Counted from the first letter of the stretch, positions 19,057 through 63,801 are shown. The stretch is 64,000 nt of DNA from Salinispira sp. (GCA_965602015.1 OZ271918.1:3584001-3648000), one strand, 5' to 3'. Notes: generated from the letters alone by a model not told the origin. Made by a program: numbers and translations.

Positions 19057-19057
19057 T

Positions 19058-30758: not shown

Positions 30759-31237
30759 AACATTCCTTTGGGAAATATGTCGCGTTATTTAAGTATAAAT
30801 TGATTTTTGAACTCACGTGCAGATCAAGGCCTCAATGCTGGCGTAAGTCGAAAAATTATGCGACTAAAAAGGAGCCGGGCCATCTGACCAAACTATTATT
30901 CTCAGAGTAGTGCTTAGTGAGTAAAAACCATAAGATGAGGCGCTGTCGCCCGATGCTGAAATCCTTTTTAGGCATCAGATTATGCACCTAACTATGCTTG
31001 TAGGGAGCTGGGAATGCGGAAATGTTTCTGCAATCGTTGTAGCCTCTCAAATTAAATTGATCAAACCAGCATAGAAAATCTCACAAACAGTTAAACAATC
31101 TCTCATTCCACTTAGACCGGAAATTTTATCTGCCGACAAAAAAAGAGCAATGGTGTTGAAGTTTGCCGACTCCCCATTGCTCTTAAAACCTCACCCCCAA
31201 AGGGGGCAAATAAACGTTACTTATTTGTCGGATAGTT

Positions 31238-44311: not shown

Positions 44312-44379
44312 ATTCTCTCTTTATTACTCTGAGCATTTATTGGCATGCTGCATCTGATTTCCAATTATCCAATTTCGAA

Positions 44380-47043: not shown

Positions 47044-47205
47044 ACAAACACCTCACTATAAGTTTTGTATTCATATATGCACCGGAAGGCACACATTTTT
47101 GAAATTCATAAGGAAACTTATGAAATACATACCACCGACTTATTGTTTTCGTTCAGAAATAACTTGGATGACCCCGGCAGCGGGTAATTGCGAGATTCTT
47201 CATGA

Positions 47206-47430
47206 TTACGCAGCCACCTGACTGGTAGCAGGATCATCGGGATCAAAATCCCAGCTGTAGCTGGGGAAGGGGATGATGTCGATTTCTGCATCCATCTCGG
47301 CTTCAACTAAATGAAGATCATCGAGGAATGCAGAGCTGTACTCTTTTTCAAGCCAGGGGGCAGAGGCATACTCGGCTGCCAGAATGGCTTCGAGTTCCTT
47401 GTTGGTGATTCCATGGGTAATCAGGGTCAT
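47206..47430 (-). CDS. Small acidic hypothetical protein
   Basis: GGAGGA RBS; ends SQVAA. Confidence 0.7.
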   Translation of the reverse strand: MTLITHGITNKELEAILAAEYASAPWLEKEYSSAFLDDLHLVEAEMDAEIDIIPFPSYSWDFDPDDPATSQVAA

Positions 47431-47469: not shown

Positions 47470-47647
47470 TATATGAACGAAATATAGAAACCGGAAACAT
47501 TGCCGGTTTTTTTCGCTTGAAGCAGGTCAGCAAGCGATTCTTGCTGACGGTTATATGGACGAAAATTCTGGAGGCTTTTTGGGAAGAAATTCAGAAATGT
47601 TTCTGAATTATTCTCCTCACTTCCATCCATACGCTTATATGAACGAA
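47470..47647 (-). promoter_or_regulatory. Three copies of the TTCGTYCATATA motif
   Basis: Plus-strand TATATGAACGAAA 47470, TATATGGACGAAA 47552, TATATGAACGAA 47636. Confidence 0.7.
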
Positions 47648-47673
47648 GGCAAGGAGTGGTATGTAAAAAGAAA

Positions 47674-48582
47674 CTACAAGATTTGTGTATCTTCGGGGGT
47701 CAAAGATGCATGGGAATACACATCCAAGGTTGTCTTTACCGACGCATGTCCCAGATATTTGCTAACTGCTTTGATGTCCTTCTTCTGGTGGACGATGGAT
47801 TCTGTTGCAAACCAGTGTCTGAGCTGGTGGTTGCCGACTCCCTCACGGTGAGCATAGCGGGAGAACGCCTTTCTCACTTGGCGGTAGAGGTTGGTCCGGC
47901 TGAGTTTTTCTCCAGACTTGGACGCAAAGAGGTAAATGGAATCTGAGTCGAAAGTATTCTTAACCTCCTGATAGAGGTCATAGGAGAGAAACACAAACCT
48001 GATTTTTCCCCCTTTCCCAGTTAATTTGATGCGGAGGAAATTGGAATCGAACGCTTCAATGTCAGATTTTTTAATCGACAGCATTTCACTGACCCTCATT
48101 CCGGTTTGAGCCATTACCTTAACCGGGATAGCGGTACGTGGTCGGGCATTGGCACAGACAGCTTCAACATCATGGCGGGTGATGACATCCTTAACATGAG
48201 TGGGGACGGGTTTATAGATCCGGGTTGTGGCGGAGAGTGTTTGAACTGGATTTGCTTGAAGTACGCCGAGCCGTATGAGGATGCTTATCACCTTGCTCAA
48301 AGATGCCAGCTTTCGGTTGATAGAGCTCGGGGCGTACTGCCTCTGCTCCAGGAATGAGATGTATCTGAGCACATCATCTTCTGTCATCTGCTCAAAGTTC
48401 TTGTGACTGAATGAGTACCAGGTGTTCATATCGGCTTTATAACTTCGAACCGTTGCTGGTGACGAAGTAGACAAATAGCGCTCTACGGCAAGAGAGATAT
48501 CGTCTTCTCTATTTATATAGGATGGTTTTGCTGGAGTCTTATCTTCATGCTCTTCGGGGAGTGGGATTACATACTGGCTCAT
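47674..48582 (-). CDS. Tyrosine recombinase (XerC/D-like)
   Basis: TGMRVSE, GKGGKIR, HQLRHWFAT, YLGHASVKTTLDVYSH. Confidence 0.95.
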   Translation of the reverse strand: MSQYVIPLPEEHEDKTPAKPSYINREDDISLAVERYLSTSSPATVRSYKADMNTWYSFSHKNFEQMTEDDVLRYISFLEQRQYAPSSINRKLASLSKVISILIRLGVLQANPVQTLSATTRIYKPVPTHVKDVITRHDVEAVCANARPRTAIPVKVMAQTGMRVSEMLSIKKSDIEAFDSNFLRIKLTGKGGKIRFVFLSYDLYQEVKNTFDSDSIYLFASKSGEKLSRTNLYRQVRKAFSRYAHREGVGNHQLRHWFATESIVHQKKDIKAVSKYLGHASVKTTLDVYSHASLTPEDTQIL

Positions 48583-48622
48583 AACGCCTCCTTCTTATGT
48601 AGTAGAATTCTACCAAGCGTGA

Positions 48623-49195
48623 TTAATCCTCCAAAATCAACAGGTATTTTGCGGACTCCGCGACAAAAACTTGAAACGCTGTTTTTCCGTCTGGTTCATA
48701 CCAGAGGTGATAGAGATATGAGGCTGCGTCTTGTAAAGGGGACATGTCATCACTGGATTCATCCTCGATGATTGTGACCCCCTCAGCGGTAAAAACTTTG
48801 AGCATATTGCAGCTCTTGAATCGGGTCCCGCTATCTATCAAGTAAAAGAAATAGATGCCAACTGAAGCCTCGAATTTTCTAACCTCTTCTTTTATCTGCT
48901 CTTCCAGCCAAGGCATCTCAGCAATCTTAATCGGGGATTCTGTCTCGATGTCGATACGGATCAGGTTATATCGGTCTTTCACGATAATTTCACTCATGTC
49001 TTCACCATCTGGATTGCGTTTCTCGACCTCCTCAAAGAGGTGTGCCAACAATGCATCGTGTTGTCCTCTGACACCGACAATCTTGACACTTTCTGGGGTT
49101 CTGAATGAGAGCATATTTTCAGCAAGTTCATAATAGAAATCAGACCGGTAGTATTTAGAGACAATCATGATGGGTATGTAGATAACTTGTGTCAT
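48623..49195 (-). CDS. Hypothetical protein
   Basis: GGGAGG RBS, overlaps upstream stop. Confidence 0.7.
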   Translation of the reverse strand: MTQVIYIPIMIVSKYYRSDFYYELAENMLSFRTPESVKIVGVRGQHDALLAHLFEEVEKRNPDGEDMSEIIVKDRYNLIRIDIETESPIKIAEMPWLEEQIKEEVRKFEASVGIYFFYLIDSGTRFKSCNMLKVFTAEGVTIIEDESSDDMSPLQDAASYLYHLWYEPDGKTAFQVFVAESAKYLLILED

Positions 49196-49752
49196 ATAGC
49201 CCTCCCGGTGAGCATCCACTTTGCCACTTCAACCGTGTAGGATTCAGGAACATTCCCTGTTTCAAGGTATGACTCCAACAGGGTTGTATAATCCTGCAGA
49301 TGCTCGTAGGTGTAATTTTCAGTATCAGTATTGGTATTGAAGGTATGCATTTTGGCGAATTGCCGGATGCCGGATTCAGTGACGTAGTATTGAAGGCTGG
49401 CTATAAAGGAGAACTCCTCATGCAGGAGCTGAAAGATGAACTCAACATCAGGGAGAATCTGTTTTGACAAATCCCACTCAGATTCAATCTCAAGATGATA
49501 ATAGCCAGTTTCTAAATCAGCCCCCTTCTGCTTGAAATCACCCAGGGATTCAATCTGGTCTCCCAGGATGCGGGTGATAAAGCCAGTGACAACACTGTCA
49601 GTTTGATATGAGATTGATTTCAGCGTGCGTCCGGGCAGGAAATGATCTTTGGCACATGCCGCATACTCTGATATCACGAACTCATGAAAATGACTCTCAT
49701 CTCCGTGCTTTTGAATCGTGGTACATGTAGGGATATAAATGTTTGAAATCAT
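49192..49752 (-). CDS. Hypothetical protein
   Basis: Coupled by ATGA overlaps in operon. Confidence 0.7.
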   Translation of the reverse strand: MISNIYIPTCTTIQKHGDESHFHEFVISEYAACAKDHFLPGRTLKSISYQTDSVVTGFITRILGDQIESLGDFKQKGADLETGYYHLEIESEWDLSKQILPDVEFIFQLLHEEFSFIASLQYYVTESGIRQFAKMHTFNTNTDTENYTYEHLQDYTTLLESYLETGNVPESYTVEVAKWMLTGRAI

Positions 49753-50294
49753 AGCCGTACCACCTTTCCGGTAACCAGTGCCATCTTTGAAATATGAGCT
49801 ATATCGGATTCAGTATAAGGCGCAAGGTAGAAATGCCGGAAGAATAGATGAGGCTGCCCAGAAATAAGCCCATCCATGTTCAGATGGTCATCATCAGATA
49901 CTTTGCTTTTATAGAGGTTCCTGGACACCTGGTGGAATATTATCTCACCTCCATCCTGTACCAAATAGAAACAAGTCGCATGGATTGGTTCCTCACATTC
50001 TGAAACGCTACTGAGGAATATTTCATCAATGATGGGATTCACATGGAGCGGATTGTGCTGATATCTCAGCTGGAAGATGTGGGTACTGCATGATTTGCGG
50101 ACTAAATCTGACAGATCATGCATCTCAAAGAGGTAGGCAATGGAGACCGATGTCAGGTCACTTACTGCTTTTCTGATATAGGTAAAGCCAATCTCCTCTT
50201 TGTATTTTTTAAGACTGATATAGAATCTATTTCCCAGCTGATTACGGGGATGAGCGGTTCCTGCAAATGTGATGATGAACTGGTGATAGTGCAT
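49749..50294 (-). CDS. Hypothetical protein (start uncertain)
   Basis: Fills operon gap; MHYHQF start assumed. Confidence 0.6.
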   Translation of the reverse strand: MHYHQFIITFAGTAHPRNQLGNRFYISLKKYKEEIGFTYIRKAVSDLTSVSIAYLFEMHDLSDLVRKSCSTHIFQLRYQHNPLHVNPIIDEIFLSSVSECEEPIHATCFYLVQDGGEIIFHQVSRNLYKSKVSDDDHLNMDGLISGQPHLFFRHFYLAPYTESDIAHISKMALVTGKVVRL

Positions 50295-50335
50295 AATGCT
50301 TATCTTATGCGGTATGAGCAAAAACGTGCTGTTTC

Positions 50336-50695
50336 TCAGTCTTCTTCCGGTAACATTATTGTCAGGACAGGCGCCGGTGTATCCCCTGGACAAATGACAG
50401 CCTTTATCTTGGCCCGTTCTAATTTATCTTCTTCAACCTGGAAGAAGACCTCAAAGATGATTGTATCAGATTCGCTGCCCTTGGCTTCCAACCTGAGGAT
50501 GGTAAGCAGGTCCCATAATCTCCCGGTTTCATCTTGTCCAGGGATATCGCATGCAATCCATTGCTGGTAAAGATTGCTTGTGATAGCCACAGGTATTTTG
50601 AACCCGGCTTCTTGAGCAAGGGCAGATACATCAATGAGAACACCGTCCTCGATCGCTTGGGCCCTTGTATATGAATAGATAATATCCCAGTCCAT
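50336..50695 (-). CDS. DUF6573-like plasmid/ICE protein
   Basis: IYSYTRAQAIEDGVLIDVS..A.EAGFKIPVAIT...GQDETGRLWDLL...PVLTIMLPEED. Confidence 0.8.
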   Translation of the reverse strand: MDWDIIYSYTRAQAIEDGVLIDVSALAQEAGFKIPVAITSNLYQQWIACDIPGQDETGRLWDLLTILRLEAKGSESDTIIFEVFFQVEEDKLERAKIKAVICPGDTPAPVLTIMLPEED

Positions 50696-51414
50696 TACTT
50701 TACCTTCCTTGGTTCCAGGTCTTTGAGATACCATTTCTCTACCGCCTTGATGACAGCCGTACGGATAGCATCATTTTCAGAATTGAAGGTGAGGATAAGA
50801 GTGTTGCCAACCTTCAAATCATTGCCTTCCAACTTTACAGAAGTCTGTTTGGGTTTAGGCTTTGCCTTCTTCTCAGGTTTCTGTAGCAAAGTCTCAGCAG
50901 TGATATTCTCTCCAGCAAGTAGCTGGTCTATGACATCATATTTAGAATCATCCTTCCGGGCTGAGAGAATGATGAGCTTCTTAATACCAATCTCTTCAAT
51001 GGAGGAAGTAATCTCCTCCATGAATTTGCCAATGTCATCAGTCTGATTTCCTTTGTGGATGAAATACTGGTTGAGTAGCTCGACTGAATTTATTATTCCA
51101 TACGCATGAGTTCGAGAAATCCCCAAGTCCTTGATGTACCTGCTGAAACTATCTTCACGCGAGTAGAAGCCAGTCCAGTTCTGATATATAAAAAAGAGGT
51201 CGAGCATAGCTCCAGTTGAAGCCCGGTCGATATCTGAAAACCGACGCTGAACCCTTTTTGATATTGCATCGAGAGCAATGGGCTCGCCTGTTTTCAAATC
51301 GAAGTAATCTTTATATAGCCTACTCTTCTGAGGGGTTGAATTCGGAAGATTTTCCACATTCACACTTTTCTTCTGAACAGCCTTGAGAGCTGCATCTTTC
51401 AATCCATCAGTCAT
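50695..51414 (-). CDS. ParA partner / putative centromere-binding protein
   Basis: Directly downstream of parA; SFSRYIKDLGISRTHAY..I HTH-like segment. Confidence 0.6.
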   Translation of the reverse strand: MTDGLKDAALKAVQKKSVNVENLPNSTPQKSRLYKDYFDLKTGEPIALDAISKRVQRRFSDIDRASTGAMLDLFFIYQNWTGFYSREDSFSRYIKDLGISRTHAYGIINSVELLNQYFIHKGNQTDDIGKFMEEITSSIEEIGIKKLIILSARKDDSKYDVIDQLLAGENITAETLLQKPEKKAKPKPKQTSVKLEGNDLKVGNTLILTFNSENDAIRTAVIKAVEKWYLKDLEPRKVK

Positions 51415-52183
51415 CTGTCTGCCCCTCCAGTAATTCATTCACAAGGTTGAGGTATTCCTGGTAGGGCTTGGAGTCCTGTTTTAACTGAGCTTGAGGCTGG
51501 GCGAAAACTTGCGAAATTTCCGTTGTGCGATGGATAACTGTATCAGCGAGATAATCGGTGTACCCCTGACGGAGTGCATAGTGGAAGGACCGGGTTACAA
51601 CCAGGTTGTCGACATAAAAGTTTGGAGCGATAAGGATACGCTCAATATTTTTGCCGATATAACGCTGAGATCGCCTCACGCCCTCTATCAGAGAAAACGC
51701 CAAATCTAAGGCCATCACTGGCCATCCCTCTAATAATACGGGACAGATTACATAATCAGCAGCAGTCAGCGCCGACCTCGTCATCAATCCCGTGTTGGGG
51801 CTTGTATCAATAATTGCATAGTCGTATTCGGAAGCGACTTCCTCAAGGACGTCATTGAGGATGAAGATGGGATTATTCTCCGATGCGAGCTCAACCTCGA
51901 TATTCTGCAAACGCAGGTCTGCCGGAGCGAACGCTACATTCTCCCAAGGATGTACCAATATATCCTTGAGGTAAGCTTCACCGAGAAGAACTTCTCGGAT
52001 AGTGCGGTCATAGTTGTATTCTGGATCTTCATCCACAACCATATGCTGTGTTGCACTGGCCTGAGGATCCAAATCAATGAGAAGGACTTTAGAGCCTGTC
52101 TGGCTGAGTACTTGCGCAAGCGCAAGCGAGGTGGATGTCTTCCCACACCCACCTTTCACAGAGACGGTAGCAATTGTTTTCAC
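51407..52183 (-). CDS. parA: ParA family ATPase
   Basis: KGGCGKTS, KVLLIDLDPQAS, YDYAIIDTSP; GTG start after GGGAGG. Confidence 0.93.
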   Translation of the reverse strand: MKTIATVSVKGGCGKTSTSLALAQVLSQTGSKVLLIDLDPQASATQHMVVDEDPEYNYDRTIREVLLGEAYLKDILVHPWENVAFAPADLRLQNIEVELASENNPIFILNDVLEEVASEYDYAIIDTSPNTGLMTRSALTAADYVICPVLLEGWPVMALDLAFSLIEGVRRSQRYIGKNIERILIAPNFYVDNLVVTRSFHYALRQGYTDYLADTVIHRTTEISQVFAQPQAQLKQDSKPYQEYLNLVNELLEGQTDD

Positions 52184-52256
52184 TTGGGACCTCCCAAGCA
52201 ATAAATTCTACCGTGATTTCAGATTCTCCAAAGCCCCTGAATTGAGAATCAAATTA

Positions 52257-53738
52257 TTAGTTTGACAATGGCACCTTTGAAAAGAACTCAAAAGTGTCAT
52301 CAATCATTTCATTCTCCCACCCGTGACCAACACCTGGATAGATTTTGAATTCAGCTGATCCTCCAACCGAATTAACAATTTCAGCAAAGACCGGTACTCT
52401 GTCTCGTGTTGTCATGCCAAAGTTTGCCATATAGAAATCCGCAAGTCCTCCATACAGGCTTACCGGGTCATTATGAATGTCGCTCTCACCAACAAAAATG
52501 AAATGTTCGACTGTCGTGTATTCGTCCAGCGAGAAGTGATTACCATCTATAGCTTGGATATTTGCAATTCCTATTTGATAGTTCAATTCCCTCCCACTGA
52601 TACTTGAAATGGGGAAGGTGTAAGCACCGGCAGCACCAATAGCAGTTGCTTCAACAAGGTCAGGATGCAAGAGAGGAAATACATTTGCCTGTATTCCACC
52701 ATTTGAGAAACCGGTAATGAACACTTTGCTGTGCATATCTAATCGCTCTGCTCGTGCTCGCTCAAGAAATCCAACTATAATACTCCGTATTTCGAGGTCA
52801 GGACGGGCCAGTGGATCATCTGAGTCTAGATCAGTGAGCATATACTCTTCGAGCATATATTGGGCCTGCCCTGGAATAAGCAGCTTTATCATGACATATC
52901 CGTACTCTTCACAATATTCTGAAAATGTCTCTGCATTGTTCTGCATACCGAATGCCAAAGCATCATAACTATCATGCCCCGGTAAACCATTCCCAACAAC
53001 CAGTGTCCGTATTGCAGAATCTCTTTTCAATGAAGATGGAAAAAAGTACATGAAGGCATACTTGCTGATTTCCGGGTCATTAACCAGTGTCAGTTTATCG
53101 AACATGAGAGTATCAAAGGATGATTGCTGAATGTTATTTATATTGGGATCAGAAGCAGCGTCTGAATCGACATCTACACCAAAACTGCCTTCAACAGGGT
53201 TCCTCGCAATTCTATCTAACATCTCCTGCAATAGAGGATTTGAGGTTAGCTGTTCCTCGAAAGTGGCTAAATCTGTAATCGATATAAATAACGTTTCTGG
53301 ATCATGCTGCCAAAAGACAACGCCGTACTCCTTGGTGAGCTCATCCAATAGCTCGAGATCGATGCCTTGAAATAAATCTACAGGGAAATCCCTGTCCCCG
53401 ATTCTTCTGATATATGTACTGTTCCCATCCTGAGGATACCAGTTACTTCCGCCAACAAGGTTTTCCAGAATTGAATAGAACTCTTCAACAAAGGGATACT
53501 CGGCATGTACCCAATATCCACGGATGCCAAAATCTTTATAGCTTTCGTCTACTCCCAATGGTTGGAACTGCAGCGATTCAACCAAGCCTTGATCGGTTAC
53601 GACGATCTCCTCAGGGGCGACTATTGCGGGAGTATTTTCAATATCAGGCTCTATGTTTTCATTTAACAAGTCTTCGGTGGTCGCGCATGAACCCAAGATG
53701 AGGGTAATGAGAAATAGTACGAGTGTAGCCTTTTTCAT
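52257..53738 (-). CDS. Lipoprotein with alpha/beta hydrolase domain
   Basis: LGSC lipobox; GFSNGG nucleophile elbow, VGESD, YPGVGH. Confidence 0.8.
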   Translation of the reverse strand: MKKATLVLFLITLILGSCATTEDLLNENIEPDIENTPAIVAPEEIVVTDQGLVESLQFQPLGVDESYKDFGIRGYWVHAEYPFVEEFYSILENLVGGSNWYPQDGNSTYIRRIGDRDFPVDLFQGIDLELLDELTKEYGVVFWQHDPETLFISITDLATFEEQLTSNPLLQEMLDRIARNPVEGSFGVDVDSDAASDPNINNIQQSSFDTLMFDKLTLVNDPEISKYAFMYFFPSSLKRDSAIRTLVVGNGLPGHDSYDALAFGMQNNAETFSEYCEEYGYVMIKLLIPGQAQYMLEEYMLTDLDSDDPLARPDLEIRSIIVGFLERARAERLDMHSKVFITGFSNGGIQANVFPLLHPDLVEATAIGAAGAYTFPISSISGRELNYQIGIANIQAIDGNHFSLDEYTTVEHFIFVGESDIHNDPVSLYGGLADFYMANFGMTTRDRVPVFAEIVNSVGGSAEFKIYPGVGHGWENEMIDDTFEFFSKVPLSN

Positions 53739-53870
53739 AAGATCTCCATTTTATTAAGAAAGGCACCCATTAATTCTAAGCAACTGAGAGAGTTTTTCAA
53801 ATAGGATTTATTCCCATACGCAATAAAGCATAGTTCTTCCTAAAGATAATCCTATCTATGGGAGGGAATA

Positions 53871-54248
53871 ATGCAGAATCCAAGAAACCTTGATCCAGAT
53901 ATACACATCTACTATCCATTGCTCATCCACTACGGCGTGAATGCAGCAGTCCTCTGGGGCTGGGTTCAGTACCAGCTAATGGTGAAAAAGCTCCACATTA
54001 CCGACATCGGGATGGATACCTATCATATGCATGTCTCCAGGTGGCAGATAAAAGAAGAGATTGGCCTGTCCTTTGGAGAGCAAATAGATGCTGAGCTTGC
54101 ACTACTGGGTGCAGACCTGGTGACCAGTAGCCCAGTCAAATTTGATGAGGCAAGTTATTACGCTATGCCCTTGAATGAGGAAAAGCTCCGGTATTTTGTG
54201 AATAGCAAACGGCAGAAGTGGGATGTGAAGGCATATTTATTGCCATGA
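53871..54248 (+). CDS. Stand-alone Rep N-terminal-like winged-helix protein 1
   Basis: YGVNAAVLWG...RWQIKEEIGLSFGEQIDAELAL aligns with Rep N-terminus. Confidence 0.7.
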   Translation: MQNPRNLDPDIHIYYPLLIHYGVNAAVLWGWVQYQLMVKKLHITDIGMDTYHMHVSRWQIKEEIGLSFGEQIDAELALLGADLVTSSPVKFDEASYYAMPLNEEKLRYFVNSKRQKWDVKAYLLP

Positions 54249-54451
54249 GGACGTTCAAGGAGTACATCGACGCCAAGTTCGATGGACAGACCTATATCAT
54301 GGTATCGCTGACTGAAATTCAAAAGGATTGGAATATCGTCCTCAAGGATGTTTTTTACATGCTGGCAACCCTGCCATACCATCTGCGGCTTCATGAATCT
54401 GACCCAGAGATAATAGTCATAGTTGATCAGAAAAAGCTGTCCCACCGGTAA
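54245..54451 (+). CDS. Small hypothetical protein
   Basis: ATGA overlap with previous stop. Confidence 0.55.
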   Translation: MRTFKEYIDAKFDGQTYIMVSLTEIQKDWNIVLKDVFYMLATLPYHLRLHESDPEIIVIVDQKKLSHR

Positions 54452-54474
54452 AACACTTGGGTAAAGGAGGAATT

Positions 54475-54852
54475 ATGCGAGATATGCGCAGCGAAGAGCC
54501 AAAAATAGAAATCAATTATGCGTTATTGAAAACCCATGGTGTGGATGCTGCAATGCTCTACGGTTATCTGAAGTCAGTAGTTATCAGCTCTGATGCGACC
54601 ACGTTGAGTGATTTGACTGACCAGATATTTGATTTAGTTTTTAAACGAAAGAGCATTCAAGAAGCTATCGGCTTAAGCCCCGGTCAACAGCTTGATGCTG
54701 AACATCGGCTGCTGGGGACAGGGCTTTTGATTAGTAATAGTGATGATGAGCAGAATGTAGAGTATTTTCTTTCACCGGGGCATGAAGACGAATTCACCAG
54801 GTGGGTTTATTCCCGTGCTGCCGTCTGGAAACATGAACTTCTTCCAATGTGA
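54475..54852 (+). CDS. Stand-alone Rep N-terminal-like winged-helix protein 2
   Basis: AGGAGG RBS; HGVDAAMLYG...RKSIQEAIGLSPGQQLDAEHRL. Confidence 0.75.
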   Translation: MRDMRSEEPKIEINYALLKTHGVDAAMLYGYLKSVVISSDATTLSDLTDQIFDLVFKRKSIQEAIGLSPGQQLDAEHRLLGTGLLISNSDDEQNVEYFLSPGHEDEFTRWVYSRAAVWKHELLPM

Positions 54853-55027
54853 AAAACTTTAACCAAAAGCGCAACGAAAAGCATAGTTAATTACAAGATA
54901 ACTACATGGTCCAGGACAAGACGGGAGAGCAGCTCGTCATGGATCACGTTATTCGCCCTTACCATGCTCTCACAGGGAAACCTGATGGTAAGGGCGATTT
55001 TATTTCTATGTAAAAAGGATGTGACTT

Positions 55028-56230
55028 ATGGAGTATCGTGATCCCAGACATGAATTGATAAACAAATCTGGATTTAACAAGTATCTACCTAAAATTGCCG
55101 CCAATATCGGCCCTCACTCAGCTATCTTCCTCTCTGAGCTTCTCAACTCAGATTCTTACTGGTACAAGAATCCAGAAAAATATTACGAGAAGACAGGCAA
55201 ACCATATTGGGGGAGATTTTACCACAGCCGAGAGATGATTGAAAAACGCACCGGTTTATCACCTTCTCAGCAACGAAAAGCACAAGAGGCTCTGAAGGAC
55301 TTTGAAATAATCTCTGTTATTTCTAAAGGTTTGCCCAGAAAGAATTACTATCTCATCGATTATCAGACTTTGAATGCCTTTCTCTCCAGTTGTTCTTACG
55401 ATGATGAAGAAGACTATAGTCAGATTCTTGAACAGCAAGAGGCTGAAAAACTTAACGACAAGACGTTAGAAAACTCAACATCAAGAGGTGAAGAAACTGC
55501 ACATCAAGACGTTAAAAAACTGCACATAAATAATAATAAAGGAATAATAAAAAAGAATAAGAATAAAGTAAGTAACGCAACTGACGGTGCTGAAGCACCG
55601 AAATCCAGCTTAAACTCTGTAAAACAGCAAAATTCATGCATTAAAGATGATATAGGTGGATCCCCGCCCGGCGCGCACGCGCAAAATCGGGCTACTGAAC
55701 CAATCAATCAGCCAACCAACTCTGAAGTTGATAGACTTATCCAGAAATATAACGCGGCAATGGGCATCGAATGGAATTATGGCGACAGAAAATCAGTTGC
55801 AAAGAACCTGTCCCGTATTCAAGCTGTGGAAAAGTATTTCACCCCGATAGCACTTTCCTATGCGTGGAAGAATATGGGAGATAAGGCCTGCAGAGAGCTA
55901 AAAGATAAGCGTATTTCGGGGTTTATTGGTTACTTTCTGCTTGATGAGGTCGAAAAACGAGGAGGGGAGATCTATGCCTATTGTGCTGATCATCTCGACT
56001 TCCAGCTTGATAGGGTGTTTAGGCGTTTTGAAAATTATATAAATGAGCAAGTGAAGCCGAAGGGGTATATCTGCGAGGGAGCAGACCTTGAGCCGATTGA
56101 TATTAAGGCAGACCTTAACACAAAGCAGCATAGGGAGCTGAGATACCAGATCTACAAACAGCATCTTGAGCCATTGCTGCTCGCAGAGGATGACTTTTAC
56201 GACATGATGATTACCTTGGAGGCAGAATAA
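55028..56230 (+). CDS. Phage/plasmid replication initiator
   Basis: GPHSAIFLSEL...FYHSREMIEKRTGLSPSQQRKA...KGLPRKNYYLID wHTH; internal iterons and N/K-rich linker. Confidence 0.8.
   Translation: MEYRDPRHELINKSGFNKYLPKIAANIGPHSAIFLSELLNSDSYWYKNPEKYYEKTGKPYWGRFYHSREMIEKRTGLSPSQQRKAQEALKDFEIISVISKGLPRKNYYLIDYQTLNAFLSSCSYDDEEDYSQILEQQEAEKLNDKTLENSTSRGEETAHQDVKKLHINNNKGIIKKNKNKVSNATDGAEAPKSSLNSVKQQNSCIKDDIGGSPPGAHAQNRATEPINQPTNSEVDRLIQKYNAAMGIEWNYGDRKSVAKNLSRIQAVEKYFTPIALSYAWKNMGDKACRELKDKRISGFIGYFLLDEVEKRGGEIYAYCADHLDFQLDRVFRRFENYINEQVKPKGYICEGADLEPIDIKADLNTKQHRELRYQIYKQHLEPLLLAEDDFYDMMITLEAE
55436..55575 (+). repeat. Putative replication origin: 4 x 23-bp iterons plus AT-rich tract
   Basis: CAAGA(G/C)G...AAACT... 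units start at 55436, 55459, 55482, 55505; A/T run 55528-55575. Confidence 0.8.
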
Positions 56231-56532
56231 TGGCATACATACTTGTACGATCAGATCAGATTTCAAAGCACTCATGGGATTCGCAGTTATTTATCATTAC
56301 TGATAGTCCCCAGGAGTTCCTGCTATCTTTCAGCGGGTTTCTCGATGATAAAAAGGCGAACTTATCTGCAAATTTTGAAGTGAGTGAAACGATTATATAT
56401 AGCAAAGCTCGTGCAGCTGGAATCAAGGCTGATCTGAAGAAACAAAATCTCCGTCAGATAGAAATAACATCATCCTTGAAAGTCAAGATTGCAGATTGGA
56501 TCATGGAGTCGCCGGTACTCTTAACCCTGTAG
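56230..56532 (+). CDS. Hypothetical protein coupled to rep
   Basis: TAATG overlap, GGAGG RBS. Confidence 0.65.
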   Translation: MAYILVRSDQISKHSWDSQLFIITDSPQEFLLSFSGFLDDKKANLSANFEVSETIIYSKARAAGIKADLKKQNLRQIEITSSLKVKIADWIMESPVLLTL

Positions 56533-56566
56533 TAAAAAAATGCTCCCCGAAGGGAGCTTGCACAAA

Positions 56567-57316
56567 TTATTTCTGAAATCCAGGAGGAAACTCATTCCAT
56601 TCTAAGCCATCCAGGACACGAATGCTTTGTTTATGATTAACGTTGAGCTGTTTGATGAAAAATGGCAGGCCAACGGTTTTGACTATATCCCGGATTGATC
56701 GCACCCAATCCAGGTTAAGAGGTCGGGCATTCTTGCCTGTCTCTGAACCAACCACTACCCAATCAACCTGATTGATATAATCACCGAGCACTATCTCATC
56801 CAGTATCGGCTCAACCGCTATGACCCTGGTGCCATTGATTGAACAGAGATGAGGAAGCCTCTCGTCGGCACTTTTCTGATTTTCAATGGACACTGAAAAT
56901 GCCATGTAATCAGGAGCTCCGTTGGGATACCTCTGATTGACTATTGAAGCCATCCGTTCAGCCCTCTTCGTCCAGAAGAGGTACTTGGGAATCGACCGCT
57001 TCCTGGTTACAGTAGCCTCAATCAAATCAAACACACGATGAATATCGTTGGTCGCAACCTTGTCCCAAAATAAATCCCCATTCTGACAGATTCCGACAAT
57101 GCCACTCTTCAGCTTAAGATTACTTGTTGTCATGCGGTTCTGGAAAATTGTTGCCTCATTGGGCTGCACATGGGCTGGGATTAGCCCCATCCTCTGGTGC
57201 CATGGGAAGATGCTATCCAGATACCAACAATTCTTACAGGCTGAAGAATATCGCTCACAGCCTATCACTGGATTCCAATCGCAGGTGAGAATATCACCGG
57301 GGTTATGTTTCGCCAT
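56567..57316 (-). CDS. DUF5131 (phage Gp37/Gp68) three-Cys protein
   Basis: WNPVIGCERYSSACKNCWY, GDLF, TKRAER, SVSIENQ, VEPIL, DWVVVGSETG..ARP, FFIKQ. Confidence 0.88.
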   Translation of the reverse strand: MAKHNPGDILTCDWNPVIGCERYSSACKNCWYLDSIFPWHQRMGLIPAHVQPNEATIFQNRMTTSNLKLKSGIVGICQNGDLFWDKVATNDIHRVFDLIEATVTRKRSIPKYLFWTKRAERMASIVNQRYPNGAPDYMAFSVSIENQKSADERLPHLCSINGTRVIAVEPILDEIVLGDYINQVDWVVVGSETGKNARPLNLDWVRSIRDIVKTVGLPFFIKQLNVNHKQSIRVLDGLEWNEFPPGFQK

Positions 57317-57376
57317 ATAGCCTCCTATTTGTAACCTCAGTTATATAGACGAAATCAGGAACTCGCCGGATAGAAA

Positions 57377-58162
57377 TTAGCGGAGCCAACGTAATTTAAA
57401 TTTTCCGTGTTTCTCAAAGTATTCAGTCCGTTCAATAACCTTCCCCATCTCACAGGCGCTGTGTTCGAGGATGGAAAATTGGGAAATTCCAGATTCTTCT
57501 TTTAGCCTATCAATTTTGTACTGAAGGTTCTTATGGCGGTAAATGCGGTTGAGAAAGACAAAGGTTCCTGTATTGAAAGGTACTGAGCTGTCTGGATTAA
57601 TTCGCTCCGGGTACAAGGTGCTTAAATCCTTAGCTATTTCACTACCCAGAAAAATCAATCTCATCCCATGTGAGGCCTTGAAGTCTTTTGCAATTTCCTC
57701 AGCGGCATATGAGATTGATACTTCATCCCATGTCTGGAGTTTTCGATGGAGCTGATCGACGACAGGAAGAGCTGTTGAGACAAGGAAGTCAGCCATGCTC
57801 TGATCAGTCTTCAAGTAAATCTGATATGCCATCCGTCCAAAGTTTGGAAGCGGCTGGTTTTGGATGCGTTTGAGATCAGCCCGCCAATCTTGGGAGAGCC
57901 AATTTAAAAATGGTTTGGATGAGTATGCACTACGGTACATCACTGAATACAAGATAGTGGAGTGCATATCCATCCCTGCCACATGGGCAAACAGCATCTT
58001 GGTACCGCGATCATGATTGCGATCGAGGTTGGTTATACGGGTGTCTCTGAGAACTGGATTGGAAGTCCATGGCTCTGGCCAGCCAGCCTCTTTTTGAAGA
58101 CGGATGTTTTCTCGCTCATTAACAAAAGAAAGGAAGTCATGTACAGTCCAAATTCGACACAT
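57377..58162 (-). CDS. aGPT-Pplase1 / 5-hmdU DNA kinase helical-domain-like protein
   Basis: FVNERENIRLQKEAGWPEPWTSNPVL...ITNLDRNHDRGT; later FLGSEIAKDL and LEHSACE..K. Confidence 0.75.
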   Translation of the reverse strand: MCRIWTVHDFLSFVNERENIRLQKEAGWPEPWTSNPVLRDTRITNLDRNHDRGTKMLFAHVAGMDMHSTILYSVMYRSAYSSKPFLNWLSQDWRADLKRIQNQPLPNFGRMAYQIYLKTDQSMADFLVSTALPVVDQLHRKLQTWDEVSISYAAEEIAKDFKASHGMRLIFLGSEIAKDLSTLYPERINPDSSVPFNTGTFVFLNRIYRHKNLQYKIDRLKEESGISQFSILEHSACEMGKVIERTEYFEKHGKFKLRWLR

Positions 58163-58222
58163 GACTTCCCATCTTATCGTGATGAGCAATTCATGCGAGC
58201 CGGAAACCGGAATTATTTCCGC

Positions 58223-58588
58223 TTAAGCCGCTGATGCAAAGTTGTCATAAACCAGCTCACGGTCAGAAAACTTGTGAAACATTGAACCCTGCTGGATGAA
58301 AGGTTCAACTTTAAATGCTGTGATGATGTATAGCCACTCAGTGTTATGTCGATTTCGACCCACGACTATCCGATAATCAGTTCCGGCAATGCGACAGTCA
58401 AGCTGTCCGTAGTGACCCTGTGAATTAAAGCCAGTGGTGTATTCTCCCTCTTTCGCCATCAGTCGAACAATGGGCAAAACCTCCCCAATCCCCGAATCAA
58501 CCAGACGCTGTTTCGCATGATATCCCATGCCAAACTGACGATCCTGAAGTTTCTGCCGGACTTCTTTCTCGGTAAAAAATCTATTCAT
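58223..58588 (-). CDS. Hypothetical protein (DUF4258/RelE-like pattern)
   Basis: AAGGAG RBS; YHAKQRL...YIITAF; ends FASAA. Confidence 0.65.
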   Translation of the reverse strand: MNRFFTEKEVRQKLQDRQFGMGYHAKQRLVDSGIGEVLPIVRLMAKEGEYTTGFNSQGHYGQLDCRIAGTDYRIVVGRNRHNTEWLYIITAFKVEPFIQQGSMFHKFSDRELVYDNFASAA

Positions 58589-58644
58589 CTGTTAACTCCT
58601 TCGTGGTATATGAACGGAATCTCCGGCCCTAAGGCCGGAGTAGC

Positions 58645-59226
58645 TTAGGCTGCCTTCTGAAGTGGTGGCCTCCAGAAACCATAATCTTCGGTGATGTCAC
58701 AGGCGTCCTGACCGGTTCTGCCGTCTGCTGTGACCAGCTCGTTACCCCAGCTGTGCCATCCCTCCCGTTTGTTACGGGCAAAGATTTCAAGGTAGGGACC
58801 AGGTGAAGCCCGTTCGATGAGTTCATAAAACTCATGGGGTTTAGCGCTGTGCTCCAACCGAGGAGCATGGATGATGGACTCAATTGCCGACATCTCTTTT
58901 GGCTTTCTCGGCTTACCTCTCACCCCAAAGAGCAGCAGTTCATGCTTGGTGCGAAAGTAATACCCAAGACCGATCTTGTCCTTCACCCAGGCAAGATTGG
59001 TGACGTAGCGGAATCCCCAGTCTTCTATGACCTGAAGAGCTTCGGGCAGGAAGTTACTGACTGTCCACATGTACAGATGGGACCTAGGGTCTGCGATCTC
59101 TTTCACCCAATCACCCATCAAAGCGATAGAATCAACGGACATCGTGGTGTAGTAGTTTGCTGCACCTTTGATTCCTCCGCTCTGCTGGGGCCAGGGGGGA
59201 TCTGTGTAAATGGTTTTGTACTTCAT
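58645..59226 (-). CDS. MT-A70 family adenine methyltransferase
   Basis: KYKTIYTDPPW, HLYMW, WGFRYVTNLAWVK, GLGYYFRTKHELLLFGVRG, HSAKP, LEIFAR, GWHSWGNE. Confidence 0.93.
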   Translation of the reverse strand: MKYKTIYTDPPWPQQSGGIKGAANYYTTMSVDSIALMGDWVKEIADPRSHLYMWTVSNFLPEALQVIEDWGFRYVTNLAWVKDKIGLGYYFRTKHELLLFGVRGKPRKPKEMSAIESIIHAPRLEHSAKPHEFYELIERASPGPYLEIFARNKREGWHSWGNELVTADGRTGQDACDITEDYGFWRPPLQKAA

Positions 59227-59281
59227 ACAACCTCCAGGTGATATGAACGAAATCCCCAGCCCGGAGGCTGGGGCGAATAGG

Positions 59282-59683
59282 TCAAGCAGCAAGAAATGCC
59301 TGGTCAGTTTTTGCCTTTCTGGCGGTCTTGATGATCTTTTGATAGTGCATACTACCTGGTAGGAGTACGTTGACCGCCATGATGTCGTGATCGAAATTGA
59401 ACCCGAATGTGCCATCGTTGCGAGCATGTTCGATATGACGATCAAACTCCTTCTCCCAAGTCGACTTCGACTCAGCCATGACAATCGAAAAACCAGAAAG
59501 TTGTTTCCAATCATTGATGACAGCCAGCATGTTGGTATACAACCGCTCACGTGAGCTAATCCGACCAATCACCCCTCCGTAAATCTTGTCATAAACAAGG
59601 ACCATAAGCAGTTCATTGCTCTGCCGCTGCTTTGCCTGTTTGACTCGTTCTTCATATGAGCCTCTGCGCTTTGCTTCTCCCAT
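59282..59683 (-). CDS. Hypothetical protein
   Basis: AAGGAG RBS, MGEAKRRG start, ends AFLAA. Confidence 0.7.
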   Translation of the reverse strand: MGEAKRRGSYEERVKQAKQRQSNELLMVLVYDKIYGGVIGRISSRERLYTNMLAVINDWKQLSGFSIVMAESKSTWEKEFDRHIEHARNDGTFGFNFDHDIMAVNVLLPGSMHYQKIIKTARKAKTDQAFLAA

Positions 59684-59744
59684 ACCTGCTCCTTTGTGCT
59701 GGCAAAGATGCGTCTGCAGGTAACCCTGCAGACATCTCAATTTC

Positions 59745-60032
59745 TCAATCCAGGTAGTAACAGAGCTCTTCATCCGACATAGCGTCTGCTACCTCATACA
59801 ACTTGATAATGGGATCAAAATCTGCAGTCTCAGAATGAATCTGCTCCAGACCGGGAATATGGTTGTGGGTTTGGAACTTGTGCCTTTGCAGTAACAGGCC
59901 AACAATGTAATCTGCCTGTTCGTAGTCAAACGTATAATAGTTTCTGAGGCTGCGTATCGCCTGTTCATAGGCCCTGTGAAGTGGCTTGAGTCGAGGTTCG
60001 TTTTCAACGAGCGTGTTACTCCATGTGTTCAT
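59745..60032 (-). CDS. Hypothetical protein
   Basis: AGGAGGTG RBS. Confidence 0.7.
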   Translation of the reverse strand: MNTWSNTLVENEPRLKPLHRAYEQAIRSLRNYYTFDYEQADYIVGLLLQRHKFQTHNHIPGLEQIHSETADFDPIIKLYEVADAMSDEELCYYLD

Positions 60033-60100
60033 CTGAACACCTCCTGATAAAGGGGTTTATTTAACAACTGCTGTTCTGTCTGGTCTCGAATCTTGTGCAT
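60029..60100 (-). CDS. 23-aa ORF coupled to next gene
   Basis: AAGGAGGT RBS; MHKIRDQTEQQLLNKPLYQEVFR; ATGA overlap. Confidence 0.45.
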   Translation of the reverse strand: MHKIRDQTEQQLLNKPLYQEVFR

Positions 60101-60256
60101 AATCAACCTCCTTTTCTTTTTAGGCTTTGAATTTCAAAACCACGGATTGCCTGCTTAACTCAGCTGTGAAGTGCCGGCAATCCTTTTGGATGAAACCTCA
60201 CAACCGTTTGGAGTCTCTTGCTGGCTCCGGTTATATGAACGAAATCTCTCCCTTCC

Positions 60257-61243
60257 TCAGGCTGCCAATAGCGGAAAGTTTTCCGGTTTTTCATCCTCCG
60301 CTGCTCCTGAGAGCAGGGAGGCATTGGGGATGAGAAGTGTCTTCACCAGGTGTTCAGCCAAGGTCTGGATAGCAAGGGGAAGAACCGAATTTCCGAGCCT
60401 GGCATGGATGGCCGAGTCAGAACCGATGAACTTGAACTCAGGCGGGAAGGTGCTCAAGATTCGCAGCTCTTCGATGGTGGGTTTGCGGGGTATCCCGTTC
60501 TGGAAAACCTGCAAACCCTGGCTCTTGGTTATGGTTGGACAGGGTTTTGAGCCTGGAATGATAGCTTTTGAAAACTGACCCAACTTCGTAGCTTCAAGCC
60601 ACGGGCAGGCATCAGTGAGGGAGACTACCTTATCGACAGGTTTGGGTATGGTGATCTCTCCCACAAGATCAGCCCGCTTACCGAGAATCCAGAGGCGGGG
60701 CCTGAGTTGTGGCGCTCCATAATCTGAAGCGTTCAGCTTGAAGACTTTCAATTCATACCCAGTAGCTCGAAGTGCCTGGACCATATCGTAGAGGGCAGAT
60801 TTCATTATGCCTTGGGAAAGTCCGACCACGTTCTCTCCCATAACCAGAGCCGGTTTTACTGCTTCAATATGACGGAGGCTTTCATAGAAGAAGTCGTTCT
60901 TCTCGTCCTCCAAGGACCGCTTGGTGTTGGCCATGGAAAACGACTGGCAGGGGAAGGACGTTTGGAAGATGCTGAGTTGGCCAGTTTGCAGCTTGATGGT
61001 GTCGAGTACTTCCTGAGTAGATACATCCCTGATGTCCTTGTTCAGAATCTGCCCTCGTTCATACAGGTCGGGAAAGTTGGCTACCAGATGCTGGTATGCA
61101 TTTTGCTTCTTATCGAAGGGGTCATACTCAAGGGCCATGACGCAGCGAGGATTCACTCCGGGTACTAAGATTTGAGAGAGGCCAAGCGAAGAACCTCCGA
61201 GGCCTGAAAATTCAGTCAGGTATGTAAGGTCGATATTTTCCAT
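60257..61243 (-). CDS. Orphan DNA cytosine-C5 methyltransferase
   Basis: EFSGLGG, SFPCQSFS, GENVVG, PQLRPR, ELRILSTFP, RLGNSV. Confidence 0.93.
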   Translation of the reverse strand: MENIDLTYLTEFSGLGGSSLGLSQILVPGVNPRCVMALEYDPFDKKQNAYQHLVANFPDLYERGQILNKDIRDVSTQEVLDTIKLQTGQLSIFQTSFPCQSFSMANTKRSLEDEKNDFFYESLRHIEAVKPALVMGENVVGLSQGIMKSALYDMVQALRATGYELKVFKLNASDYGAPQLRPRLWILGKRADLVGEITIPKPVDKVVSLTDACPWLEATKLGQFSKAIIPGSKPCPTITKSQGLQVFQNGIPRKPTIEELRILSTFPPEFKFIGSDSAIHARLGNSVLPLAIQTLAEHLVKTLLIPNASLLSGAAEDEKPENFPLLAA

Positions 61244-61428
61244 AACACACTCCTTTCAATTGGTTTCAGGTATATGAACGAAACTTCTCTCTTCCCCGCT
61301 TGGGAGAAAGCAAGCCATCTCGTTCCTGACGGTTGTATGAACGAAAAAAAGGAGCTCTTCTCAAAAAAGTTTTTACAAATATGAAGCAGGAAGCATTTTC
61401 TTCTGGTGTATAGGGTGGAGGTACTGCA

Positions 61429-61599: not shown

Positions 61600-61875
61600 G
61601 GGAAGGTGTTATTTCATACCCGGAAGGATAACGAATTCCCCTCGGATGAACCTCGGCTGACTGGGATGGATATAGGATGTAGTCTCAGATGTTAAATCGC
61701 TCCATCTGGAAGGTGTGAATTTACACATTCAAACCTGAAATTCACAATAAGCTCCAGGTTCTTCCCGGTCGCATCCGCTTAGCCAGAGGGATATGCAGAT
61801 GCTCCTCTTTGACACGAATTCATCTGGGTTGAACCTCGGAGACCTGGGATGGATTGGGAGACGATGCCAGATATA

Positions 61876-62436: not shown

Positions 62437-62907
62437 TTAAGCTGCAGGGATGACAATCTCCCTGAACTTATCCAGCGGCGCTACATAGACCTTGAGACGA
62501 GTATCCTCGTTCTCGAGTTCCTGATGTTCCACATACCTGACGACTTTGGGGTCACGGATGATACGAAAAGTCACATGAGGAGGTTTGATATACCCTTCCT
62601 CGGTGTAGCGGCGAAGGTAGTTATCTACCGTTTTAAGACATGGACCTCCTACCTCTTCCAGGCTGACCTTTACAAATTCTGCCCAAGTGTGTTCACCTTT
62701 CTTGGCTCTTCCAGCGGATCTGGAAAAATTGTCTGTGAGCACCTTCTTGGCTAAGTACAGTTTCCGAAGTAACTCTTCGGAAAGATTTTTCCAGTTGAGG
62801 TAGAGTCCTCGCGCCGTTCTTACACTTGTCCAGAACTCCCAGTTGGGATCAAGTTTGGTTTTGATCTGCAACGCATCCGGCCGGATTTCCTGTAGTGCTT
62901 GTTCCAT
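62437..62907 (-). CDS. Hypothetical protein, paralogue of 61908-62366
   Basis: GGGAGG RBS before ATG 62907; WEFWTSV...ELLRKLYLAK...TW..FV...KTVDNYLRRY. Confidence 0.75.
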   Translation of the reverse strand: MEQALQEIRPDALQIKTKLDPNWEFWTSVRTARGLYLNWKNLSEELLRKLYLAKKVLTDNFSRSAGRAKKGEHTWAEFVKVSLEEVGGPCLKTVDNYLRRYTEEGYIKPPHVTFRIIRDPKVVRYVEHQELENEDTRLKVYVAPLDKFREIVIPAA

Positions 62908-63006
62908 AAGCACCTCCCTGATTCTTTGTGATAGATAGAACGATGGAACTCGGTGTGATCCCCAAAAAAAGGTGAAAAAAATCTTAACCGGATTTATACT
63001 CAAAAT

Positions 63007-63753
63007 ATGAGTAATGAACGACTAACGAAACTTATACCTGTAAAAACTGCTGTAGGATTGTGGGGGAAAACGAGCATCATTGTAGATGTTGGCAAAATCT
63101 GGAAGATTTTTGACAAGATTGCTAAGGGAACAGCTCTTAGCCCGGATGATATTGCTGAACTCTTTGATTTTTTTCTATCAATCGGGATTGTTGTGAATCG
63201 AAGCATTTATCCTGATAAGGCGGTTATTTATAATCCTAAAACCGGGACAATGACAAACGATCATCAAATCGATGAACTCATGCTTGCCATAGAATGCGTT
63301 TTCAAGTTTTATACTTCCGATCCGCAAATACGGGTCATTGATTATTTCCCTACTGAGCCGTCAGATGAATCAATGAAGCGGCGATTTTATGCTCACGTCC
63401 GGACAAAATTGAGGAACTGTTGGATAGATGTCCTCAGGAAAATGAAAAACGATTCATTGGATCGAATCTTGGAAAAACTAAATGAATCGTTCTCAGATGG
63501 TGAGGATGGTCTCAAGCGGAAACATGAGGTTGCACAGGAAGCAGGGTTGATGATTTCCGCCAAACCTGTCGGGGATGTATCAGAAAAATCAGATGAATTA
63601 GTGATCTACACTGAGATAGATTTTGAAACTGAAGAAATCTATAAGCTCTTCAATCAGAAATATCGGGAGATAAAAGATGGTCTTAAAAGTGAAATATATG
63701 CGCTTGAGAACAAGGGAAAACCTGGTGAGAAGTATTCGGGCCTAATTGGGTAG
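63007..63753 (+). CDS. Hypothetical protein with sigma-70 region 2-like segment
   Basis: FYAHVRTKLRNCWIDVLRK resembles sigma 2.3-2.4; TATACT 6 nt before ATG (leaderless). Confidence 0.55.
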   Translation: MSNERLTKLIPVKTAVGLWGKTSIIVDVGKIWKIFDKIAKGTALSPDDIAELFDFFLSIGIVVNRSIYPDKAVIYNPKTGTMTNDHQIDELMLAIECVFKFYTSDPQIRVIDYFPTEPSDESMKRRFYAHVRTKLRNCWIDVLRKMKNDSLDRILEKLNESFSDGEDGLKRKHEVAQEAGLMISAKPVGDVSEKSDELVIYTEIDFETEEIYKLFNQKYREIKDGLKSEIYALENKGKPGEKYSGLIG

Positions 63754-63774: not shown

Positions 63775-63801
63775 GCGCTCTCCAGTTGGAGGGCGTTTTT
63801 T
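63775..63801 (+). terminator. Intrinsic terminator
   Basis: CGCTCTCC-AGTT-GGAGGGCG followed by T6. Confidence 0.8.

Follow-up and report, generated by a model that had tools for sequence, protein, structure and literature searches.

A putative one-block promoter and a predicted sigma-domain-2 protein in an integrative element of Salinispira sp.

Nine copies of a box in an element at tRNA-Leu

We analysed a 64,000-nt stretch of DNA from Salinispira sp. (GCA_965602015.1 OZ271918.1:3584001-3648000), hereafter the window, and scanned the host genome (3,869,486 bp). This genome contains three FlaA genes, which mark a spirochaete, compared with 0 of 14 control genomes. The subject is a low-GC island, an integrative element of self-replicating type (here called the element), which lies between tRNA-Leu(CAG) and a copy of that gene's 3' portion and carries a short repeated box, the class I box. 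An earlier note made from this DNA alone had described the box in front of small operons and proposed a dedicated promoter, or an operator or RNA site, for which an open reading frame (ORF), ORF 63007, was named as worth testing. We followed up this box, a second box (class II) and the protein predicted from ORF 63007. The class I boxes and the two weaker variants of the earlier note are:

47470..47481, minus strand, class I box (exact), 39 nt ahead of ORF 47430; predicted +1 at 47466
47552..47563, minus strand, class I box; a 9-bp hairpin begins at its predicted +1, 47548
47636..47647, minus strand, class I box (exact), just past the resolvase gene; predicted +1 at 47632
57342..57353, minus strand, class I box; predicted +1 at 57338; 25 nt before the DUF5131 gene
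58607..58618, minus strand, class I box; 18 nt before ORF 58588; GC hairpin 58621-58640 directly upstream
59240..59251, minus strand, class I box; 13 nt before the MT-A70 gene; terminator-like hairpin 59254-59273 directly upstream
60232..60243, minus strand, class I box (exact); predicted +1 at 60228, then a structured leader of 130-200 nt
61271..61282, minus strand, class I box (exact); predicted +1 at 61267; 27 nt before the C5 methyltransferase gene
61334..61345, minus strand, class I box; predicted +1 at 61330; 63 nt upstream of the 61271 copy
47066..47085, minus strand, weak variant before ORF 47043; better fitted by a class II-like box (CATATATG, with pyrimidine (Y) at -1 and purine (R) at +1)
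62929..62944, minus strand, weak variant that precedes ORF 62907 and stands back to back with the ORF 63007 promoter

All nine class I copies were recovered at the reported places, intergenic and on the minus strand. Four are exact, four carry one mismatch and one carries two, and their consensus is (A)TTTCGTYCATATA(A)C. At two mismatches or fewer the window held 21 matches, compared with 6.5 +/- 2.7 in 100 shuffles, none of which reached 21; the excess is accounted for by the nine copies. The first 46 kb, where the earlier note had seen none, indeed contained no copy with fewer than two mismatches, and the nine matches with two are at chance level. When a matrix of the nine sites was scored across the genome, element and host chromosome together, all nine ranked among the top 12 matches. 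With a leave-one-out matrix, three of the nine copies had no equally good host site and the other six had 3-9 such sites, which corresponds to under 0.1 expected per 39.5-kb stretch. Three of the top 12 matches lie outside the element: one site falls within two overlapping ATP-binding cassette (ABC) transporter genes, and the remaining two are the two copies of a single duplicated stretch. This duplicate is ~200 bp long with its copies 13.5 kb apart (L002 9070, L003 4556), one of them just upstream of a 419-aa ORF that by eye resembles an integron integrase. Scans for the exact motif elsewhere returned single scattered matches (0 and 23 viral loci; 118 genome loci from 26 of 64 parts), and among 400 genomes of the phylum 97 had matches, at most three each and unlinked.

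Five class I copies end 13-39 nt before an ATG preceded by a ribosome-binding site, as had been described. Another three (47552, 47636 and 61334) are followed by 63-84 nt devoid of ORFs and then by the next box; the product from the 47552 box would be an ORF-less RNA or a long leader. The tandem boxes at 47470-47647 and 61271-61345 would give short structured RNAs, of which the one after the 47552 box would begin with the 9-bp hairpin and the one after the 61334 box could pair with the next box. A 41-nt non-coding direct repeat (61631-61671 and 61814-61854, 183 bp apart) lies between ORF 62366 and the 61334 box. As for the weak variants, placed by the earlier note at ~47074 and ~62932, their scores of 2.3 and -4.3 bits on the class I matrix are below background, although both retain the C-R-T core and the start-site spacing. 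The 62929..62944 variant retains CGTTC and Y-1/R+1 and has lost T-7/A-6.

Putative promoter geometry of the boxes

In agreement with the earlier description, no conserved -35 element was found, and the nine-site alignment shows no conserved column upstream of -5. Neither did we find a sigma70-type consensus promoter overlapping any of the nine sites, and the 13 nt between the 59240 box and its ATG leave too little room for a separate promoter. We numbered the boxes with the conserved C as -13. Seven of the nine class I sites then have a pyrimidine at -1 and a G at +1, and the other two have this step one base later (background for either position, 0.21). The step was first noticed after the fact and was then tested on 21 sites not used to define it: a Y-R step occurred at exactly the same offset in 15 of these, and at other offsets in 1-8 of the 21. 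The background, taken from 17,278 host intergenic C-R-T words, is 0.25, giving a binomial value of 1e-5, which overstates the case since the relatives share ancestry and orthologous sites are among those counted. Both box classes follow the layout C-R-T-n-n-n-T-(A) with a pyrimidine-purine step 12-13 nt after the C, as expected of a start site.

The GC hairpins that the earlier note had seen directly before the boxes are real at some copies and are not a general feature. They are strong at 58607 and 59240 (-18.2 and -17.5 kcal/mol) and moderate at 61271 and 47470. Since -15 kcal/mol or below is also reached by 12% of the host stretches that follow a stop codon, we read the hairpins abutting the boxes as ordinary terminators of the preceding gene.

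A second box before replication and excision genes

The class II box, absent from the earlier note, has the sequence AAGCATAGTT. It occurs seven times in the genome. Six of these copies belong to the element, where they precede the replication operon, rep, xis and int or lie in the two other 70-bp repeats. The features concerned are:

53826..53835, plus strand, class II box AAGCATAGTT, preceding the replication operon's small ORFs
54879..54888, plus strand, class II box, preceding the gene for the replication initiator
30990..30999, minus strand, class II box within a ~70-bp repeat
about 65337-65409 and 65629-65702, window numbering (beyond the window), the other two copies of the ~70-bp repeat, before int
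L001 4191, 5379 and 5672, further class II copies near int and xis
55028..56230, plus strand, O-like replication initiator gene with three 23-nt internal repeats (55431-55522)
63877-64164, xis, convergent with ORF 63007
64191-65366, window numbering, int (tyrosine integrase), after xis

All six element copies have Y-1/R+1 and T-7. In the relatives described below, the element of genome G524 has seven copies on the same strand, one of them at the orthologous place before xis, and the G527 prophage has three; none was found in G497, and ten other integrase-related loci have none or one each.

ORF 63007 is predicted to fold as sigma domain 2

ORF 63007 and its immediate surroundings comprise:

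63007..63753, plus strand, ORF 63007; 248 aa, predicted sigma-domain-2 fold at residues ~25-150, candidate reader of the boxes
62972..63000, plus strand, sigma70-type promoter (GTGAAA-17-TATACT), ending 6 nt before the ORF 63007 ATG
63775..63796, plus strand, terminator-like hairpin separating ORF 63007 from the convergent xis

The AlphaFold model of ORF 63007 has a predicted local distance difference test score (pLDDT) of 81-97 over residues 21-140. In a VIA structure search with this model the top row was T4 gp55 (Z 8.6, root-mean-square deviation 2.9, 96 residues aligned), 20 of the top 21 rows were sigma factors and the first unrelated row had Z 5.3. VIA cautions that Z below about 13 may reflect a common helical arrangement, so the uniform list of sigma factors weighs more than the score itself. 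The top Foldseek row was also gp55 (E 0.61) and the Atlas lead was Sigma70_r2 (0.94). A profile search returned 13 representatives that have in common an N-terminal part of ~160 residues and differ in their C-terminal parts. Family members P0005, P0006, P0007, P0010 and P0004 carry extra C-terminal domains, with one weak match to an Mrr nuclease (E 0.24), and may be described as a sigma-2 fold fused to other domains.

We then predicted the complex of ORF 63007 with the clamp region of the host RpoC. It scored 0.67, compared with 0.00 for the best of three controls; the three runs gave 0.80, 0.67 and 0.08, with at least 46% contact agreement and a partner pLDDT of at least 59. In the calibration, the score mark was reached by 116 of 157 solved pairs and by 2 of 215 mismatched pairs. 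The predicted interface comprises residues 49-57 and 85-100, including D89, M92 and E96, so that the ORF 63007 product is predicted to dock on the beta-prime clamp helices. T4 gp55 likewise places three acidic residues of its helix H3 at the clamp helices (PMC7892883), and the counterpart in ORF 63007 would be helix 85-100 with D89 and E96.

No sigma-4 domain (PF08281 or PF04545) matched ORF 63007 at E<=1, which fits the absent -35. Residues 146-248, modelled separately, gave a model of too low confidence (pLDDT 49.5) to bear on this. Between the attachment (att) sites of the element no Pfam match to sigma-4 was found, a scan that a diverged partner could escape.

The sigma70-type promoter ends 6 nt before the ATG, and the ORF 63007 mRNA is hence predicted to be leaderless. 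In the present genome (G000), G527 and G497 this gene is preceded by a sigma70-type promoter whose spacer is 17 nt and which ends 6-7 nt short of the ATG; G524 does not show it. No box was seen before ORF 63007 on its own strand.

Genes behind the boxes

The genes behind the boxes encode two methyltransferases, a protein with the helical domain of 5-hydroxymethyldeoxyuridine (5-hmdU) DNA kinase, a DUF5131 protein and five or six small unnamed ORFs:

62437..62907, minus strand, ORF 62907, the first gene divergent from ORF 63007; paralogue of ORF 62366; ends IPAA
61908..62366, minus strand, ORF 62366, paralogue of ORF 62907
60257..61243, minus strand, C5 DNA methyltransferase; ends LLAA
59745..60032, minus strand, 95-aa ORF without family
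59282..59683, minus strand, 133-aa ORF without Pfam family; ends FLAA
58645..59226, minus strand, MT-A70 methyltransferase; ends QKAA
58223..58588, minus strand, 121-aa ORF without family; ends ASAA
57377..58162, minus strand, 5-hmdU DNA kinase helical-domain protein
56567..57316, minus strand, DUF5131 protein with weak radical-SAM likeness
47206..47430, minus strand, 74-aa acidic ORF, net charge -14; ends QVAA
46600..47043, minus strand, 147-aa ORF; ends RVAA

Of the ten ORFs that follow class I boxes, six have Ala-Ala at the C-terminus, compared with 10 of 3140 distinct host ORF ends obtained with a simple ORF caller. The tag of the host transfer-messenger RNA (tmRNA) ends AMAA, and ClpXP recognises ssrA-type Ala-Ala tails. 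The 74-aa acidic ORF had no Atlas match, and an anti-defence role for it would be a guess. All four sequencing runs contain a separate contig that matches ORF 62907 over a short piece before diverging from it (L001 2780); there is no second copy in the assembled genome.

Relatives in other spirochaetes

Homologues of ORF 63007 were reached through an integrase search and a 15-row alignment. The integrase search returned 10 of 400 genomes of the class, and relatives of ORF 63007 were found in five of the 400, two of them marginal (G609 and G768). With alignments of 2 or 7 rows no relative was detected in viral, metagenome or genome contigs, in 400 genomes of the phylum or in 98 of the order. 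One further homologue and an integrase relative came from one source and from contigs of equal length (4157), which merely hints at linkage.

In three other spirochaete genomes (G524, G527 and G497) the gene lies beside a recombinase and is accompanied by related CGT or CAT boxes. G524 holds a syntenic element (int 64%, ParA 77% and recombinase 45% identical) with the homologue in the same place and orientation as ORF 63007 (hhalign 96.7%); this homologue (L160 7059-8729) has two tandem sigma-2-like domains, and the element has both box classes. The core matrix of the nine sites, run blind on 21 kb of G524, gave three top matches, each of them intergenic and on the strand of the early genes, a result equalled by none of 300 column-shuffled matrices and absent from five control regions. 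The full 16-column matrix gave no cluster in the G524 element; the core minus the leading TT was needed. The G524 boxes read AGCGTY in place of TTCGTY. Across the G524 genome the loose pattern occurs at chance level only.

In G527 the gene belongs to a prophage (L179-L180, G527:C1 about 216000-245000) with terminase, portal and capsid genes. It adjoins a serine integrase and is divergent from an ORF 62907 homologue and a C5 methyltransferase gene. The sigma-fold gene is there in the usual repressor position, and this prophage has no class I cluster. In G497 it adjoins a serine recombinase, its divergent leader contains two TTCGT sites and two divergent ORFs end in Ala-Ala. The literature searched, which covered neither subscription papers nor preprint supplements, held no description of the ORF 63007 family or of the box.

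Proposed mechanism and alternative explanations

We infer from these sequences that the boxes act as promoters, of which the ORF 63007 product may read class I, class II or both. The box is probably a one-block promoter read on the host RNA polymerase by an element-encoded sigma factor that consists of domain 2 only. The idea of a dedicated promoter tied to ORF 63007 is thus supported as the best reading of the class I box, by the predicted fold, the docking on the clamp helices, the start-site geometry and the relatives with related boxes. In the mechanism that we propose, host sigma70 would transcribe the leaderless mRNA, and the ORF 63007 factor would load on the host core polymerase and open promoters at -13..-6 without contact to a -35, as T4 gp55 does. 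Class I sites would then fire the methyltransferases, the base-modification genes, the small acidic proteins and perhaps three short RNAs. The Ala-Ala tails would pass most class I products to ClpXP, leaving a brief burst that would suit entry into a new host or departure from the chromosome.

Several observations weigh against this proposal. At the level of sequence, ORF 63007 has no match in Pfam, PHROGs or NCBIfam and is not among the 15 Sigma70_r2 matches of the genome; hhalign against host sigma-2 gave 1.4% (E 0.037), which is not significant, in a register corresponding to regions 2.2-2.4. The Z of 8.6 falls in the range that VIA holds ambiguous for helical proteins, one of the three RpoC runs scored 0.08 and the predicted complex may score through likeness to solved sigma-clamp structures. 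That one factor should serve two different boxes lacks an explanation, and ORF 63007 occupies the usual place of phage repressors. Among the relatives the blind matrix was clear in G524 only, with one intergenic top match in G527 and none in G497, where the TTCGT sites were picked by eye and the Y-R step comes 3 nt later. Ala-Ala ends recur in G497 (two ORFs) and not in the G524 element or in G527; in addition, PdeH has an ssrA-like tail that was not the degron (PMC12974527).

The boxes may be promoters of which ORF 63007 reads class II only, class I being read by an alternative sigma of the host or requiring another protein of the element, for example the 62907/62366 pair. Class II is better conserved than class I across the elements that bear homologues, the host has 15 sigma-2 genes, and CGT boxes are typical of promoters of extracytoplasmic function (ECF) sigma factors. 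A host sigma should however have host targets, of which none was seen; in G524, G497 and the G527 leader, too, the gene is accompanied by class I-like CGT boxes, and the C-R-T, T-7 and start spacing are common to both classes. We consider this division of labour unlikely.

Somewhat less probable still is an operator, at which ORF 63007, as a blocking sigma mimic, or the 62907/62366 proteins would silence host-sigma promoters until entry into a new cell. The leaderless host promoter of ORF 63007 stands back to back with early genes, as is the case for phage repressor genes. Upstream repeats control establishment genes on plasmids of the pLS20 family (PMC8708921). An operator is hard to reconcile with the lack of a sigma70-type promoter overlapping the nine sites, with an asymmetric and strictly oriented box, and with the fixed Y-R step, which is not expected of an operator.

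We consider it very improbable that the box acts in RNA, as a terminator tail or as a processing or translation signal between cistrons. Two copies do abut strong GC hairpins, one of them called terminator-like, and three copies stand at intervals of 63-84 nt that contain no ORFs; the RNA after 61334 can pair with the next copy. On the other hand, five of the nine copies have no notable upstream hairpin, a U-tract needs no invariant CGT and ATA, and the link to a sigma-fold gene would be left unaccounted for.

Least probable of all is a recombination or cassette-joining site of the XerC-like recombinase: copies do stand at gene borders, three follow the recombinase gene and two outside matches lie in the duplicated stretch adjoining the integrase-like ORF, whereas the box has no inverted repeat or palindrome, the integron-core GTT is present on the opposite strand in only four of nine and in the contigs from one sample no copies are joined to one another (weak, since contigs drop rare forms).

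Comparison with known systems

Returning to the proposed one-block promoter with its own sigma, the closest likeness is to the late system of phage T4. The letters of the T4 late box, numbered -13 to -6, are consistent with a flipped A at -12, -9 and -8. This flipping is described in PMC7892883, according to which the similarity of gp55 to sigma70 is limited to domain 2 and an acidic helix lies on the clamp helices; the late promoter has an 8-bp -10-like box with no -35 and an AT-rich downstream region (PMC7892883, PMC2988020). Both box classes are near the 8-bp box in layout, gp55 is the best structural match to the ORF 63007 model, and the class I and class II geometry, at the predicted start sites, would fit a -10-only promoter about one turn before the start. 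The differences are considerable: gp55 and ORF 63007 are 9% identical, with no PHROG, Pfam or PDB sequence match that would place ORF 63007 in the gp55 family; gp55 serves late genes, whereas here early and accessory genes of temperate spirochaete integrative elements and a prophage are concerned; and there are two classes of box here, starting CGT or CAT. No gp33-like partner or gp45-like clamp of its own was found here by Pfam scans, which could miss a gp33-type mimic among the unnamed ORFs because gp33 has no sequence likeness to sigma-4 (PMC2988020).

SigN (ZpdN) of the Bacillus subtilis plasmid pBS32 is likewise an element-encoded sigma with a regulon confined to its element, but its promoters have a -35 and a -10 and it activates itself under LexA control (PMC6751061); no -35 was found here. 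Tn916, too, is an integrative element that relies on a non-canonical sigma of its own, Sig7-Sig8, for its excision genes (bioRxiv 10.64898/2026.10.01.756105). In Sig7-Sig8 and SigO-RsoA region 4 is on a second subunit, whereas the element scanned here has no sigma-4 Pfam match, many putative promoters instead of one and no conjugation genes among its scanned proteins. The EGeRS of pLS20-family plasmids (PMC8708921) likewise unite scattered and variable operons through upstream repeats with transient expression; here the box is 12-16 bp, is linked to a sigma-fold gene and lies in an element without detected transfer genes. The earlier note had drawn an analogy to ECF sigma factors, of which only a resemblance is left. 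ECF promoters have CGT in the -10 position and several ECF domain-2 structures match the ORF 63007 model at Z 4-6, but ECF sigmas have a region 4 and a -35 element, neither of which was found here; membership of ORF 63007 in the ECF group is not supported, and the closest fold is gp55. The arrangement would be a variant of element-encoded sigma regulons, and membership in the gp55, SigN or Sig7-8 systems is not shown.

More broadly, and quite tentatively, temperate spirochaete elements and prophages might replace the repressor switch by a stand-alone domain-2 sigma, expressed from a leaderless host promoter at the cI position, that reads two -10-only promoter types with no region-4 partner, one for excision and replication and the other for a self-destructing, Ala-Ala-tagged burst of modification and anti-defence proteins and short RNAs. 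In some temperate elements the switch would then be a private sigma instead of a repressor. ORF 63007 represents an unannotated family with a predicted sigma fold, missed by every family library tried, and its natural variants (one domain with TTCGT boxes, the tandem two-domain form of G524 and the prophage form of G527) allow the co-variation of box and protein to be followed. The family allows a direct test of whether a domain-2-only sigma can run a regulon without gp33-like help. The box together with the Ala-Ala tail may serve to find anti-defence genes in spirochaete elements, and compact orthogonal promoter-sigma pairs could be on offer.

Other features of the element

The ends of the element and its remaining genes include:

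27751..27803, minus strand, partial tRNA-Leu(CAG) duplicate (3' part), left end of the island
67230-67313, window numbering (beyond the window), tRNA-Leu(CAG)
51407..52183, minus strand, ParA-family ATPase, with no box in front
47674..48582, minus strand, XerC/D-like tyrosine recombinase

The ~70-bp repeat, present at 30962 and twice before int, offers an alternative pair of element ends. In the contigs of one sample, sequence depth inside and outside the element is similar. Among the 36 proteins scanned (the set does not include the ORFs at 30-39 kb) there were no virion, relaxase, type IV secretion system or other conjugation families, and no plasmid match was found. The cargo includes insertion sequences and defence-type genes. 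The latter, at 38700-45440, comprise a C5 methyltransferase with a GIY-YIG nuclease, a HEPN/RES protein and a DUF433-PIN toxin-antitoxin pair whose antitoxin likewise ends in Ala-Ala. Partial tRNA-Leu duplicates and repeated flanks (window 16300-19060 and 27620-27930, L001 7100-7314) point to islands stacked at one tRNA gene. Finally, at 19685-27281 of the window we noticed by eye a peptide-exporter-like ABC transporter whose coding sequence is split between two overlapping ORFs (25132-25806 and 25761-27281), with HlyD- and TolC-like neighbours.

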